64,000 nucleotides of DNA, taken from the NCBI RefSeq assembly GCF_030384885.1, contig NZ_CP128613.1. One strand, given 5' to 3'. The translations under genes were made by a program, and so were the position numbers. The notes under the pieces were generated by a model, which saw nothing but the letters and a program-made list of their open reading frames with translations, ran no database searches and was not told the DNA's origin. Below are positions 1,769 to 36,389 of the stretch, in pieces. Within the stretch, counting starts at the first letter, position 1; every line of letters starts with the position of its first letter. The DNA is from Escherichia coli (lineage in GTDB: Bacteria > Pseudomonadota > Gammaproteobacteria > Enterobacterales > Enterobacteriaceae).

Positions 1769-3287
1769 GATGTTCGCTCCTCAATGCGGCTTCCATCACC
1801 TGCTCCTGAGTCAGGTTATGATTTATCAGGTTGGCTTTTAGTTTCCCTTCATGCATCACCAGTACACGATCGCTAAGGCCGAGCACTTCAGGTAATTCGG
1901 AAGAGATGACAATAACGGCAATACCCTGCTGGACGAGTTGGTTAATTAATTTGTAGATCTCGTATTTCGCGCCAATATCGATACCCCTGGTAGGTTCATC
2001 AAGAATGAGAATGCGCGGGTTGAGTAACAGACAGCGAGCGAGGATCGCTTTTTGCTGATTGCCGCCGCTCAAACGTCCAATAGCAAGGTCGGGGGACGAC
2101 GTTTTAACTTTGAGTTGCTGGATTGATTCCAGAATACATTTTTGCTCTGCCGCGTCATCAAGCTGGCTAATACCGCCGGTAAATTTATTGAGTGCGGCGA
2201 GGGTAATATTTTTACCAACCGCCATTACCGGAACGATGCCGTCGCGCTTTCTGTCTTCGGGTACCATCGCAATCCCCTGGGCGATGGCTTGCTGACAGTT
2301 ACGAATATCTACCTGTTTGCCATCAATATAAATTTTTCCTTCCCATTGTCCGGGCCACACGCCAAACAGGCACTGAATGGTCTCGGTACGTCCGGCACCA
2401 ACGAGTCCGGCAATACCCAGTATTTCGCCACGTTTCAGGGAAAACGAGACATCATTAACTCGTTTAATATGACGATTAACCGGATGCCATGCCGTCAGAT
2501 GTTCAATACGTAATATTTCATCTCCGGTGGTATGTGGTTCATTAGGGTAAAGCGCGGTTAACTCTCGCCCGACCATCATGGTGATAATATCGTCTTCACT
2601 CATTCCGGCAGCATCACGCGTACCAATGTGCTGACCGTCGCGAATAACGCAAATCGTATCGGAAATCGCTTTGACTTCGTTGAGCTTGTGCGAAATATAA
2701 ATACAGGCGATACCGTGCTGTTGTAGATCGCGAATAATATCCAGTAAAACCGACGTTTCCTGCTCAGTTAATGAGGCTGTCGGCTCATCGAGAATTAACA
2801 AGCGCACCTGTTTATTAAGTGCCTTAGCAATTTCAACCAGTTGTTGTTGCCCTAGCCCTAAATCGCCAACGCGGGTATCTGGTGAAATAAGTAAACTGAC
2901 CTGTGCGAGCAGCTTCTGACAGCGTAGCGTCATCAGATCATAGTCCATAATACCATTGTGGGTTATTTCGTTACCCAGGAAAATATTTTCCAGTACGGTC
3001 AATTCTTTCACCAGGGCCAATTCCTGGTGAATGATAGCGATACCTTTGCGTTCGGTATCGCGGATGTGACTCGCCTGAATCTCTTCTCCCGCAAAAATAA
3101 TGTCGCCTTCGTAGGAGCCATGGGGATAAATACCACACAGCACTTTCATCAGCGTTGATTTACCAGACCCATTTTCCCCGCAGAGTGAGACGATTTCGCC
3201 GGCATTCAACCGCAAGCTAACGTTATCAATTGCCTTCACACTGCCGAAGGTTTTGGTAATGTTCTTCATTTCAAGTAGATAAGGCAT
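1746..3287 (-). CDS. xylG: Xylose ABC transporter ATP-binding protein (tandem ABC domains)
   Basis: ORF 1746..3323; start placed at internal ATG ([15 protein letters not shown]...) giving 513 aa; two Walker A GxxGxGKST motifs. Confidence 0.95.
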
Positions 3288-13201: not shown

Positions 13202-13479
13202 TCGCTAAATAATAGAGCAACCTTTAATAATCTTCTGATGAATAAAGATTGTCTCATATATTAATTTTATGAGATTTTTTTAGGATTATATCAAGGAGAA
13301 GAAAAGAACTTATTAAGCTAGAATAGCTGCGGGTGCTTGAGACTGTTTGTCTCAGGTATTCACCGAAAGGCAGACAGAGAAAAGCCCCACCTGACTATAA
13401 ATCAAAGTGAGGCTACCCTATGCCTGAACACCATAAGGTTAGCCTCTTACTCGTTAGAAATCAACACAGGAGGCTGGGA

Positions 13480-13632
13480 ATGCCGCAGAAATATAGATTA
13501 CTTTCTTTAATAGTGATTTGTTGCACGCTTTTATTTTTCACCTGGATGATAAGAGATTCACTGTGTGAATTGCATATTAAACAGGGGAGTTATGAGCTGG
13601 CGGCATTTTTAGCCTGCAATTTGAAAGAGTAA
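13480..13632 (+). CDS. hokA: Hok-family type I toxin (50 aa), locus intact
   Basis: MPQKYRLLSLIVICCTLLFFTWMIRDSLCELHIKQGSYELAAFLACNLKE; in-frame upstream extension present in ORF track (mok-like leader region). Confidence 0.85.
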   Translation: MPQKYRLLSLIVICCTLLFFTWMIRDSLCELHIKQGSYELAAFLACNLKE

Positions 13633-13762: not shown

Positions 13763-13793
13763 AATAAAAAAATCCCCGCCATTTGGCAGGGAT
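13763..13793 (-). terminator. Rho-independent terminator downstream of cspA
   Basis: Hairpin ccctgcc-aaat-ggcgggg followed by U-run on minus-strand transcript. Confidence 0.6.
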
Positions 13794-13820
13794 CTTAGAT
13801 TCTGTGCTTTTAAGCAGAGA

Positions 13821-14033
13821 TTACAGGCTGGTTACGTTACCAGCTGCCGGGCCTTTAGCGCCGCTTTCGATGGTGAAGGACACTTTCTGACCTTCGTCCA
13901 GAGATTTGTAACCATCGTTCTGGATAGCAGAGAAGTGTACGAACACGTCTTTAGAGCCATCGTCAGGAGTGATGAAGCCGAAGCCTTTGTCAGCGTTGAA
14001 CCATTTTACGATACCAGTCATTTTACCGGACAT
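13821..14033 (-). CDS. cspA: Major cold shock protein CspA
   Basis: 70 aa [70 protein letters not shown]. Confidence 0.97.
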
Positions 14034-14192
14034 AGTGTATTACCTTTAATAATTAAGTGTGCCTTTCGGCGATATGGCGTGCTTTACAGATTTTGAAGCG
14101 TTAAAGGAATGTGCACTACGAGGGGTATCAACGATAACTCTTGAAGGGACTTGCCTTACTACACTGCTTTAATGGTCTGTACGTCAAACCGT
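14034..14192 (-). promoter_or_regulatory. cspA long 5' UTR (cold-responsive leader, by established knowledge)
   Basis: Region immediately upstream of cspA start on minus strand; extent taken from known ~159 nt leader, not resolved from sequence alone. Confidence 0.45.
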
Positions 14193-14313
14193 TGATGTGC
14201 ATTAAGCCACGCATTGGCGGGTGATGCAACAATTATTTTTCATATTTATGATTAATCGGTTGGAAAACGGTCCTGTCATCAGGACCGTAAACAGCAATAA
14301 AGTGGATAAAAGT

Positions 14314-25388: not shown

Positions 25389-25465
<77 letters not shown>

Positions 25466-25474
25466 AATTCGAAA

Positions 25475-25501
25475 AGCCTGCTCAGCGAGCAGGCTTTTTT
25501 G
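25475..25501 (+). terminator. Rho-independent terminator after proK
   Basis: Hairpin agcctgctc-agcg-agcaggct followed by T6. Confidence 0.6.
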
Positions 25502-25790
25502 CATTTGAAGCCCATGAGGATGAGAACCTCCGGGGGCGGGGAGGTTCGACTCGAGCGAAGCGAGAGAACGTTGCGCCAGCAACGGCCCGCAGGGCGAGCC
25601 ACGAAGTGGCGAGTAATCCTCTATCACCGACCAATTTAGAAAAACCAGCCTACGGGCTGGTTTTTTGCTTTCTGCGACCTGAAGAGGATAAGAACCTCCG
25701 GGGGCAGGGAGGTTCGACTCGAGCAAAGCGAGAGAACGTTGTGGCAGCAACGGCCCGCAGTGGCGAGTAATCCTCTGGCACCGACCAAAA
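25502..25790 (+). repeat. Two tandem ~155-170 bp repeats, each ending in a copy of the proK 3' terminal 19 nt and containing a degenerate T-arm-like segment
   Basis: aatcctctatcaccgacca at 25615..25633 is identical to the tRNA 3' end (25447..25465); aatcctctggcaccgacca at 25769..25787 has 2 mismatches; gggaggttcgactcgagc occurs in both units. Confidence 0.6.
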
Positions 25791-28057: not shown

Positions 28058-28238
<181 letters not shown>

Positions 28239-33557: not shown

Positions 33558-33914
33558 AAAGTCCTGTCCAGAAAGAAGTCGGCCTCGCAAAAATGAATAA
33601 ACCCAGTTTCTCTTGCGCAACAGGTGGAGAAGTCGAATACGCAGTATGTAAAAAATGAGGCAACAGATTCACTGGGGAGGTCGCGAGGAGGCGCAATTCT
33701 ACAAAATTGCGCATTTCACTACCAGTCTGGAGTCAGCCCGGATATGAACTGCAACTATTGCAAATAAAGAAATTAAGCTGGAAGGCATCACGCAATGAGG
33801 AAGATTGCCGGGTGCTGACGGTAAAAAGCAATCGTAAAAGCAGCGGCAAGCCGGAAAGGTTCCGGTGAGGCGCAATGTTGCGAGGGCTTAATCCCTGGTG
33901 GCATTGGTTGCTGG

Positions 33915-33984
33915 AGAGAGAAAACCCCCGCACGTTGCAGATATTCACCTGACAACATCACGGGGGCTAATCTTGAACCTAGAC
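33915..33984 (-). ncRNA. rdlD: Rdl-like antisense RNA (copy 1), approximate ends
   Basis: Minus-strand gtctaggttcaagattagcccccgtgatgttgtcaggtgaatatctgcaacgtgcgggggttttctctctcc with terminal hairpin cccccgc/gcggggg plus U-run, upstream of ldr ORF; boundaries estimated. Confidence 0.45.
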
Positions 33985-34032
33985 CACTCAAGAATAGCCG
34001 CGAAACGTTGTCATTACAACACAGGCGGCTAT

Positions 34033-34140
34033 ATGACGCTCGCAGAACTGGGCATGGCCTTCTGGCATGATTTAGCGGCTCCGGTCATTGCTGGCATTCT
34101 TGCCAGCATGATCGTGAACTGGCTGAATAAGCGGAAGTAA
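34033..34140 (+). CDS. ldrD: Ldr-family type I toxin peptide (35 aa), copy 1
   Basis: MTLAELGMAFWHDLAAPVIAGILASMIVNWLNKRK. Confidence 0.85.
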   Translation: MTLAELGMAFWHDLAAPVIAGILASMIVNWLNKRK

Positions 34141-34190
34141 CGTGTCAGACGGGCGTCAGGCTGCCGTAATGGCAATTTGCGCCCGGACCA

Positions 34191-34223
34191 GGCCGCAGGG
34201 ATAAAACTCTGCGGCCTTTTTCG
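34191..34223 (+). terminator. Rho-independent terminator after ldr copy 1
   Basis: ggccgcag-ggataaaact-ctgcggcc followed by T5. Confidence 0.5.
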
Positions 34224-34397
34224 TAAGAAAAATGCAACGGTTGCAAGCGGATAATATTCTGCGGAATGCGCAGCACAGAGTGAAGAAGTGATGGATTCCG
34301 GAACAGAAAAACAGTCGTAGAATCAGCGGCAAGCCGGAAGGGTTCCGGTGAGGCGCAATGTTGCGGGGGCTTAATCCCTGGTGGCATTGGTTGCTGG

Positions 34398-34467
34398 AGA
34401 GAGAAAACCCCCGCACGTTGCAGGTATGCACCTGACAACATCACGGGGGCTAATCTTGAACCCAAAC
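34398..34467 (-). ncRNA. Rdl-like antisense RNA (copy 2), approximate ends
   Basis: Duplicate of copy 1 offset by 483 bp with a few substitutions. Confidence 0.4.
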
Positions 34468-34515
34468 AACTCAAGAATAGCCGCGAAACGTTGTCATTAC
34501 AACAGAGGCGGCTAT

Positions 34516-34623
34516 ATGACGCTCGCAGAACTGGGCATGGCCTTCTGGCATGATTTAGCGGCTCCGGTCATTGCTGGCATTCTTGCCAGTCTGATCGTGA
34601 ACTCGCTGAATAAGCGGAAGTAA
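34516..34623 (+). CDS. Ldr-family type I toxin peptide (35 aa), copy 2 (variant)
   Basis: MTLAELGMAFWHDLAAPVIAGILASLIVNSLNKRK; differs from copy 1 at two positions (M26L, W30S). Confidence 0.8.
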   Translation: MTLAELGMAFWHDLAAPVIAGILASLIVNSLNKRK

Positions 34624-34709
34624 CGTGTCATGCGGGCGTCAGGCTGCCGTAATGGCAATTTGCGCCCGGATCAGGCCGCAGGGGTGAAACTCTGCGGCCT
34701 TTTTCGTTC

Positions 34710-36389
34710 TTATTGCGGGTAAGGCACCCAGTCGCCGCCGTTCAGGCGAACGTACGGTTTATCCTGGTATTGAATAACTACTGCATTTGAGTTCTCGGAG
34801 ACCGGTGCTGTTTGTGGCAACCCACTGGTGAGTTTTTTCCAGTCAACATTGTCTTCGGTGAAAATCTTACCATCAAGAACGCGAACCACCAGATCGGAGA
34901 TAGCCAGGAAGCTGCTCGGTTGGTTGATGACAATCGGTGCCCCCTGATGTGGTGCCTTCATGCCGAAGAATTTCACCCCAACGGGGACGTCTGTGATAGA
35001 CGGGCTAGGGATATCACGTAGGCCAGATACCTGCATTCTGTCGCCCTTCAGCGCGCCACCGTGTTCCGGCACCACTACCACCATCACTTTACGACCCGAT
35101 TTCTCCAGTTCAGTAAAGAAGGCGTCCAGCTCATCAAAGAATTTCTGCGCTCGCGCTTTGTAATCCGCTGTTTTGCTGACGCCCGGATAATGGTTGCCGT
35201 CATGCAGTGGAAGCGTGTTGTAGAACGTGGCACTACGGCTGTTTTTATCTTTTTCGGTAACGTCCAGCCAGCGGTTAAGCACGGCGGTATCGTCATAAAC
35301 CGGCGAACCATCAAAGCCCAACAAAATAACCGGCAGATTTGTTTGATCCATCAATTCGGTCTGCATGCCGCCATTTTCGCGAACTTCTTTCAAAAAACCG
35401 CCGAACTGGCCGTTATGTCCCATCATCAGGTGCTGGGTAAAGCCCAGTTTCGACAGGTTATCAAACAGATAGCAGTCGTTATTTGCCGGTTGATACAGAT
35501 TAGTGTGCGAAGTCTGCCCGCAGCTGGCGCGCAGTAAACGGATCGCTGCCGGGCCACTGTAGGAGGTGGCGGAGTTAAAGTTCTTGAACTCAATATCGAA
35601 ATGCGACCACAGCGGATGCGACATCAACCCGGCGGCTTCAATATCCGACCAGGAAAGCGAACAGATATTAATCACCAGTAGTTCAAATGGCTGAGCATCA
35701 GCGGGCAGCGAAGACGGGAAGGTCGATTTACGTTTCGCCTCCGCGTTATAGAAATTATTCAGCCAGGCGTTAAGGTTCGCCGTTGTTGGCGGTGCAGTTT
35801 GTGCGGGCATATCACCCACTACCGGTGCGCCACCCGTCGCCGCAACGGTTGCCGCTGCGTTACCACCCGTCGTTGTTACAGTGGTCGTCGGTTGACCGGC
35901 AGGCCACAAGGAGAAACTTGGTCCCGCCAGGGTAAGTACGTTCAGCCATAGCAGAATGGCAACCACAAAAACGGTAATGCGAATCCATTGTGATAGGAAT
36001 AACCAGGCCACTAATAAAACAAAAATGGCCCCAATCATCTGCCAGTTAATAAAGCGTGTGACAAGGTCGATTAAATAATCGGTACTGAACCCCGCCACCT
36101 GCGAACCCTGGCTCATTATGCTTTCCGGGCCAGGCAACCAGGTGTCATGCCAGAACAAAGCAAAGCCGATCGGCAGGGCAATCCAGTGGCGTAAGCGATG
36201 CAGGCTGTAGCGCGGAATGGGCATCAGCAGAAACGCGGCAAACACCAGATTGAGGAGCGGATGGAAGTTAAGATATCCCGCCCACAACAGGCCGAACTTA
36301 ACCAGAAAATAGAAGTTCCAGCCGGAAAGGCCGCGCCAGTATTGCCAGAGGGAAGAAGGCATGGCGGTATTTTGCGTAAATTGAGTCAT
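34710..36389 (-). CDS. bcsG: Cellulose biosynthesis protein BcsG (phosphoethanolamine transferase for pEtN-cellulose)
   Basis: 559 aa; N-terminal membrane helices plus periplasmic alkaline-phosphatase-like domain; last gene of bcsEFG. Confidence 0.95.

Follow-up and report, generated by a model that had tools for sequence, protein, structure and literature searches.

The single ldrD/rdlD type I toxin-antitoxin unit of E. coli K-12 lies between yhjV and bcsG. The E. coli chromosome studied here carries two such units at this site, and the toxins that they encode differ at two residues. This raises two questions: is the second unit a peculiarity of this strain, and does its variant peptide still behave as an Ldr toxin? 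We analysed a 64,000-nt stretch of contig NZ_CP128613.1 (assembly GCF_030384885.1), called the window below, and all positions are those of the window. We conclude with high confidence that the region is a two-unit LDR-D (ldrD/rdlD) type I toxin-antitoxin array at a conserved yhjV-bcsG site, and that it represents one allele of a polymorphism that runs from one to six units.

Two head-to-tail LDR-D units lie between yhjV and bcsG

We found two head-to-tail LDR-D units at positions 33824-34707, flanked by yhjV (minus strand, end at about 33620) and bcsG (minus strand, 34710-36389). A repeat search returned a direct repeat of 300 nt (33824-34123 versus 34307-34606) with 95% identity and a start-to-start spacing of 483 nt, and a repeat of this length and identity excludes chance. 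Pairwise alignment stretched the homology to 33824-34224 versus 34307-34707, both on the plus strand. The first of these segments is unit 1, which is yhjV-proximal, and the second is unit 2, which is bcsG-proximal and the last unit of the array. The conserved core of the 483-nt repeat is about 400 nt long and differs at 19 positions between the two units. An 82-nt spacer (34225-34306) separates them and is present solely where two LDR-D units abut; we infer that it should hold the -35 region of the unit-2 ldr promoter. A strict sigma-70 consensus scan of 33600-34800 found no promoter. The guides to promoter positions are homology to K-12 and weak hexamers spotted by eye, and no coordinates are given here.

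We also considered a relic third unit upstream of the array, suggested by a 20-nt family at 33678-33697 that resembles 33857-33876. This candidate was rejected as a chance resemblance. When 33558-33823 was compared with the full unit by sensitive blastn, the best match was only 10 nt long (E = 0.18).

Both units encode 35-residue Ldr peptides

Each unit contains a 35-codon ORF on the plus strand. The first, at 34033-34140, encodes MTLAELGMAFWHDLAAPVIAGILASMIVNWLNKRK (RefSeq WP_001295224.1), and the second, at 34516-34623, encodes MTLAELGMAFWHDLAAPVIAGILASLIVNSLNKRK (WP_000170736.1). Pfam PF13940 (Ldr_toxin) matches all 35 positions of both peptides, with 93.1 bits for copy 1 and 83.3 bits for copy 2, and the copy 2 peptide matches the LdrD structure PDB 5LBJ with E = 1e-16. 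Neither peptide was matched by the NCBIfam HMMs. The copy 1 peptide is identical to K-12 LdrD apart from F3L. The two copies differ from one another at residues 26 (M in copy 1, L in copy 2) and 30 (W in copy 1, S in copy 2), and codon 25 carries one synonymous change. The translated ORFs thus agree with the earlier note, which had reported M26L and W30S in the second copy relative to the first. Both exact peptides are widespread, with WP_001295224.1 and WP_000170736.1 each found on at least 1000 contigs in the protein collection.

An in-frame upstream extension of the ldr ORFs to 80 codons (GTG at 33898 for unit 1 and GTG at 34381 for unit 2) was rejected since it is not conserved: one E. coli unit has an in-frame open stretch upstream of ldr of just 24 codons, and in Salmonella and Citrobacter this stretch is 20-28 codons long. 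The 35-codon ORF was compared across 20 units, in which 5 of 23.7 synonymous sites and 5 of 81.3 nonsynonymous sites were variable. The resulting nonsynonymous to synonymous ratio per site of about 0.3 in these 20 units indicates purifying selection on the ldr ORF type as a whole.

Each unit has its own antisense RNA, terminators and candidate leader ORF

The Rfam rdlD model (RF01813, gathering score 50) matched each unit once over its full length of 1-66, in both cases on the minus strand. The first match, Rdl 1, lies at 33919-33984 and scores 85.5 bits, and the second, Rdl 2, lies at 34402-34467 and scores 90.4 bits. Both end 49 nt upstream of the respective ldr ATG. Because of this cis-antisense arrangement each 66-nt Rdl is fully complementary to the 5′ UTR of its ldr mRNA. 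A terminator scan placed a terminator-like site at the end of Rdl 1 (33941-33927, minus strand) and of Rdl 2 (34424-34410, minus strand). On the plus strand the same scan found an intrinsic terminator for ldr mRNA 1 at 34190-34222, in which a hairpin at 34190-34217 with an 11-bp stem (8 G-C pairs) is followed by TTTTT. The corresponding terminator of ldr mRNA 2 (34673-34705, hairpin 34673-34700) lies 5 nt from the stop codon of bcsG, which is on the opposite strand.

The ldr 5′ UTR of unit 1 also contains a 25-codon ORF at 33875-33952, and unit 2 has its counterpart at 34358-34435, both on the plus strand. Each starts 158 nt upstream of the ldr ATG, and its 3′ end is overlapped by Rdl. Almost every Escherichia unit retains this ORF, as does S. 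arizonae. A leader-ORF hypothesis has been described for ldrX (PMC4147584), and the 25-codon ORFs are candidates for ldrX in the two units.

The array resembles the K-12 LDR-D locus and other E. coli LDR-D arrays

The LDR-D locus of K-12 (Kawano et al. 2002, cited by PMC4147584 and PMC8309996) likewise lies between yhjV and bcsG. It encodes a toxin of 35 residues, has an antisense RNA of 66 nt directed at the 5′ UTR, and carries two terminators. At the DNA level the unit shows 95-96% identity. It differs in having one unit instead of two, in lacking the L26 and S30 of the window's second peptide, and at a few positions of the Rdl 5′ tail. The closest complete genome, E. coli 2013C-4282, is 99.9% identical to the window over 1.6 kb, and its RefSeq annotation reads yhjV, two genes labelled "type I toxin-antitoxin system toxin Ldr family protein" (WP_001295224.1 and WP_000170736.1) and bcsG.

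The ldrABC/rdlABC cluster of K-12 is also a tandem Ldr/Rdl array; it falls into the Pfam and Rfam families of the LDR-D units and, like them, tends to duplicate within one intergenic region (PMC2887945). However, it occupies another chromosomal locus and belongs to the LdrB group, whose peptides end in WWRNRK. Its units are about 80% identical in DNA and have a period of about 540 nt, and its inter-unit spacer is unrelated to that of the window. The E. coli ibs/sib modules are again type I systems repeated in tandem within a single intergenic region, with antisense RNAs encoded in cis (PMC2887945), and they may offer an analogy for cognate-specific antitoxin recognition between repeats, although their toxin and RNA families are unrelated to Ldr and Rdl.

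These results agree in most respects with the earlier note. It had described two tandem ldrD/rdlD-type units, and the repeat, the Pfam and Rfam matches and the comparison with the K-12 locus bear this out. It had assigned to each unit an Ldr ORF, an antisense Rdl with a terminator of its own and a downstream terminator, all of which were recovered as ORFs, RF01813 matches and hairpins. It had placed a single unit at this position in K-12, which is what BW25113 has between yhjV and bcsG. The near identity of the two units also stood, while the unit size of about 380 bp did not, given a core of about 400 nt and a period of 483 nt. Of the two K-12 comparisons that it had proposed, ldrD proved to be the same locus and type, while ldrABC is a separate locus and subgroup.

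Multi-unit LDR-D arrays are the common state in E. coli

We searched 5426 complete E. coli genomes with a 136-nt query (34200-34335) that spans the inter-unit junction. The junction was present in 3305 of these genomes (61%), with 6997 junctions in total. A search with a 375-nt unit query returned 12411 units in 5405 genomes, with a median of 3 and a range of 1-6. An inflation of the junction count by ldrABC-type arrays was considered and ruled out: the junction query did not match any of three ldrA-type loci, two of which have two units each, and the difference between 12411 units and 5405 genomes agrees with the 6997 junctions. Among 60 genomes sampled at even spacing, we counted 20 single-unit, 7 two-unit, 25 three-unit and 8 four-unit arrays. 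Taken from the match counts and this 60-genome sample, the copy-number distribution has its mode at three units, and two units are found in roughly 10-12% of genomes. The single-unit state of K-12 is therefore a minority state (39%).

The arrays that we inspected had one unit in BW25113 and ST648, two in 2013C-4282, three in S6, four in IAI39 and strain 104, and five in 042. All lie between yhjV and bcsG with a spacing of 483-484 nt. The multi-unit arrays of IAI39, 042, S6 and 2013C-4282 share with the window the 483-nt period, the flanks and both peptides. The arrays of IAI39 and 042 contain internal units that are absent from the window, and the number of internal units is the only difference.

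The earlier note had regarded the duplication as noteworthy relative to K-12. With two or more units in 61% of complete E. coli genomes and a median of three, this view does not hold. The note had itself allowed for a duplication that is common and ancestral with two equivalent peptides, and on the first of these points the multi-copy state is common and old. Tandem duplication of ldr-rdl is a known trait, and lineage-specific duplications have been reported (Fozo et al. 2010, PMC2887945). We found no population survey of ldrD copy number in the literature. Apart from the recurrent toxin allele of unit 2, which lacks a family-signature tryptophan, the array is real but ordinary: the literature and RefSeq already cover the module, its repetition in tandem and the two peptides.

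The second unit carries a Ser30 allele of the family-signature tryptophan

An exact 81-nt piece that contains the L26 and S30 codons was found in 304 of the 5426 complete E. coli genomes. These include IAI39, SMS-3-5, CE10, 042 and ST648, which belong to phylogroups D and F. In all four multi-unit arrays inspected the S30 peptide is encoded by the bcsG-proximal unit, as it is in the window, and in strain ST648 it is the sole LDR-D toxin.

We compared the two variable residues with 46 species-representative Ldr peptides. Residue 26 is L in 23 of them, A in 17, M in 4 and V in 2, and Leu26 also occurs in E. albertii, E. whittamii, Salmonella and Citrobacter. Since Leu26 is both the commonest residue and the outgroup residue, it is the ancestral state, and the Met26 of copy 1 and K-12 is derived. 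The polarity of "M26L" as a change in copy 2 is thus the reverse of that implied by the earlier note. Among these peptides only W30S appears as unusual in copy 2, Trp30 being the signature residue of the Ldr/Fst family. Copy 1 has the Ldr/Fst signature, with W30 followed by KRK. In contrast, copy 2 has S30 and no Trp at 30 or 31 while keeping the KRK tail, and every one of the 46 comparison peptides has Trp there. The PxxxG motif (P17-V-I-A-G21) is present in both copies and in 44 of the 46 peptides.

Since W30S removes a residue found (as Trp at 30 or 31) in all 46 peptides, a substantial loss of function in copy 2 is possible. One explanation built on this is that copy 2 encodes a disarmed toxin, in which W30S abolishes or strongly weakens membrane anchoring and toxicity, and that all the unit still provides is additional Rdl, or that it is neutral repeat DNA kept by recombination. 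Consistent with this, the tryptophan is stated to be a signature of the Ldr/Fst superfamily (PMC2887945, PMC7472228), the Pfam score of copy 2 is 10 bits below that of copy 1, and Rdl 2 is fully intact. However, 304 complete genomes of deep lineages, among them IAI39, SMS-3-5, CE10 and 042, share this open ORF with an identical sequence, a frameshift or stop was seen in none of the five copies inspected, and ST648 has no other LDR-D toxin. In addition, Fst of pAD1 has Val at the Trp-equivalent position and is still toxic (PMC7472228), so the signature Trp is not obligatory in the superfamily, and copy 2 retains the PxxxG motif that Fst and Lpt cannot do without (PMC7472228). We consider a disarmed copy 2 unlikely, if worth keeping in mind.

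Taken together, the toxicity of Fst of pAD1 with Val, the intact PxxxG motif and an ORF that is open in every copy seen speak against S30 as an inactivation. Copy 2 looks intact, with an open ORF, PVIAG and KRK retained, and an Rdl 2 that scores above Rdl 1. The S30 peptide would still insert into the membrane and remain under Rdl control, and its toxicity would be unchanged or moderately weakened but not abolished. We found no published mutagenesis of LdrD, either in PMC8309996 or in our literature searches.

The 5′ ends of the Rdl RNAs are the most variable part of the unit

The fold energies of the two antisense RNAs are -29.1 kcal/mol for Rdl 1 and -31.7 kcal/mol for Rdl 2, with a z of about -5.0 for each. 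Both are predicted to fold into an 11-nt unpaired 5′ tail followed by a long terminator hairpin. Rdl 1 and Rdl 2 differ at 4 of 66 positions, of which two are in the 5′ tail, one is in the apical loop and one changes a G-U to a G-C pair.

When units from different strains were compared, the most variable part was the 22 nt at the Rdl 5′ end, where 8 of 22 sites vary versus 50 of 373 elsewhere (Fisher p = 0.008; 20 non-independent units from 7 strains). The mean pairwise difference is 0.143 in this segment and about 0.03 elsewhere.

Variability at the Rdl 5′ end would fit a diversified antitoxin-target recognition between tandem units. Carried further, this leads to the proposal that the units are functionally insulated paralogues, in which each Rdl is specific for its own ldr mRNA, the two toxins are regulated independently and the S30 peptide has a shifted activity or target. 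The concentration of variable sites in the 22-nt segment speaks for it, as does the finding that three of the four Rdl 1/Rdl 2 differences fall at predicted unpaired positions and the fourth strengthens a pair, and the units are old and retained across strains (see below). But with only 4 of 66 positions different, cross-pairing may still be allowed, and the variability comes from 20 non-independent units of 7 strains. [quoted passage not shown] Full insulation of the units therefore strikes us as doubtful. We give a similarly low weight to the broader idea that the S30 peptide is a naturally diverged Ldr toxin, attenuated or re-targeted, which has long been kept at the bcsG-proximal end in one lineage group, is the sole LDR-D toxin of some strains and, together with the hypervariable Rdl 5′ tails, would make the units individually addressed and non-redundant.

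The two units are older than the split between strains

We aligned 20 units from 7 strains over 395 compared positions; recombination between units blurs the resulting unit tree. The nearest relatives of unit 1 are first units elsewhere, namely those of IAI39 (7 of 395 differences) and strain 104 (9 of 395). The nearest relatives of unit 2 are last units elsewhere, namely the fifth unit of 042 (2 of 395) and the fourth unit of IAI39 (5-6 of 395), and also the single unit of ST648 (7-8). Positional orthologues from different strains thus differ at 2-9 sites while the window's own two units differ at 19, and the paralogues are therefore older than the strain split and are not the result of a recent duplication. 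An assembly artefact or a private recent duplication in this strain can be set aside with near certainty: assembly errors do occur in tandem repeats, and at 99% identity or more the 1.6-kb region has matches in only 2 records, but 19 sites separate the two units, each of which is closer to units of other strains, the two-unit arrangement recurs with both peptides in the complete genome of 2013C-4282, and the junctions are present in 3305 complete genomes.

The single unit of ST648 is a chimera, with a 5′ half that is first-unit-like and a 3′ half that corresponds to the S30 last unit. By this pattern the ST648 unit is a visible product of unequal crossing-over. The two-unit form in the window is probably a longer array that was reduced by the loss of internal units through unequal crossing-over.

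The locus is also found outside E. coli. A degenerate DNA pattern that encodes FWHDLAAP was run over the contigs of a single genome for each species. It located ldr beside bcsG, yhjV or both in two subspecies of Salmonella enterica (arizonae and diarizonae) and in Citrobacter, Kluyvera, Pseudocitrobacter and other Escherichia, mostly in single copy; these counts are soft, as draft assemblies may collapse repeats. The presence of ldr beside bcsG or yhjV in several other taxa indicates that the locus is ancient. Single copies were seen in S. enterica subsp. arizonae and diarizonae and in many Citrobacter, and Kluyvera sichuanensis has three copies with a different period. Within Escherichia, we saw a single unit in E. 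whittamii and two units both in Escherichia sp. E1V33 and in a divergent "E. coli" representative. The outgroup state thus appears to be a single copy, and the amplification looks to have occurred within Escherichia before E. coli diversified.

Discussion

Our analysis provided the anatomy of the array, its family membership, its population frequency and the age of its units. Toxicity, repression by Rdl and the RNA duplex are taken from the K-12 literature, and what we infer are the promoters, the leader ORF, the reduction of a longer array by deletion and how far the S30 peptide is functional. Overproduction of LdrD in K-12 stops growth, kills cells and condenses the nucleoid within minutes, and co-expression of RdlD prevents this toxicity (PMC4147584, PMC8309996). 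[quoted passage not shown] The ldrD-rdlD duplex forms in vivo in K-12 and is a substrate of RNase III (PMC7373196).

By analogy with K-12, each unit in the window would be transcribed rightward into an ldr mRNA in which a long 5′ UTR precedes the 35-codon ORF of a small membrane-helix toxin, with an intrinsic terminator of its own. Each would also produce a leftward 66-nt Rdl, whose start lies a short way upstream of the toxin ORF, whose sequence is fully complementary to the 5′ UTR and whose end is formed by a separate terminator hairpin. Pairing of Rdl with the ldr mRNA would then keep the toxin from being made. Unequal crossing-over between the 483-nt repeats would maintain the copy-number polymorphism of one to six units, and the strain studied here would have kept a first-type and a last-type unit, most likely after losing the internal units of a longer array.

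For the LDR-D locus it is K-12 that is the atypical strain, with one unit versus about three in most E. coli. It would be of some value to learn whether a recurrent allele without the tryptophan and the variability of the Rdl tails make the units of an array functionally distinct. For structure-function work on LdrD, the S30 allele already offers a natural change of the signature tryptophan, and the variable Rdl tails are a simple way into antitoxin specificity within arrays.

Array collapse in E. coli ST648

We examined the sole LDR-D unit of E. coli ST648 (L006, NZ_CP008697.1; ldr at 2957-3064, and flanks) and found that it encodes the S30 peptide, which lacks the signature tryptophan. This unit is chimeric, its 5' half being of the first-unit type and its 3' half of the last-unit type. 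The chimeric unit is a footprint of array collapse through unequal crossing-over.

Surroundings of the array

The terminator of ldr mRNA 2 and the stop codon of the convergent gene bcsG lie together at 34673-34709 of the window. The bcsG stop codon is only 5 nt from the end of the terminator, and thus the ldr and bcsG transcripts converge on one hairpin. On the bcsG strand the hairpin is not followed by a T-run, so it does not evidently serve in both directions. bcsG is intact in the window, whereas the array-adjoining bcsG of E. coli IAI39 (L004, 3151-6081) is interrupted by an IS4 element.

Further Rfam matches in the window were to a sok antitoxin, belonging to another type I module (13331-13482, plus strand), the cspA thermoregulator (13766-14193, minus strand), a tRNA with two RtT repeats downstream (25389-25787, plus strand) and the ES036 sRNA (28081-28123, minus strand). 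All of these are expected in this region of the E. coli chromosome.

ldr units outside E. coli

In Kluyvera sichuanensis (L047, 6743-7793) three tandem ldr units adjoin bcsG, with a spacing of 496-532 nt and identical peptides. This amplification occurred at the same conserved site and is independent of the Escherichia array. An LdrD-like peptide (MPFAELGMAFWHDLAAPVIAGILASMIVNWLNKRK) is also encoded on a 503-nt contig with a coverage of 0.66 labelled Bacillus sp. EB106-08-02-XG196 (L051); its presence in that assembly is almost certainly E. coli contamination.

Leader ORF and Rdl tail

Each unit in the window carries a 25-codon ORF (MLRGLNPWWHWLLERENPRTLQ..T) on the plus strand (33875-33952 and 34358-34435), 158 nt 5' of the ldr ATG, and Rdl covers its 3' end. 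The ORF is kept in nearly all Escherichia units, and the S. arizonae version has 28 codons. We consider it a candidate for ldrX, the leader ORF proposed in K-12 (PMC4147584).

Among 20 LDR-D units from seven strains (the window and L002-L007), variability peaked in the segment that holds the unpaired 5' tail of Rdl (minus strand; 33963-33984 and 34446-34467 in the window). We found 8 of 22 sites variable in this segment compared to 50 of 373 in the rest of the unit (Fisher p = 0.008), and a pairwise difference of 0.143 compared to ~0.03 elsewhere. This variability may reflect diversifying antitoxin-target recognition between tandem LDR-D units.
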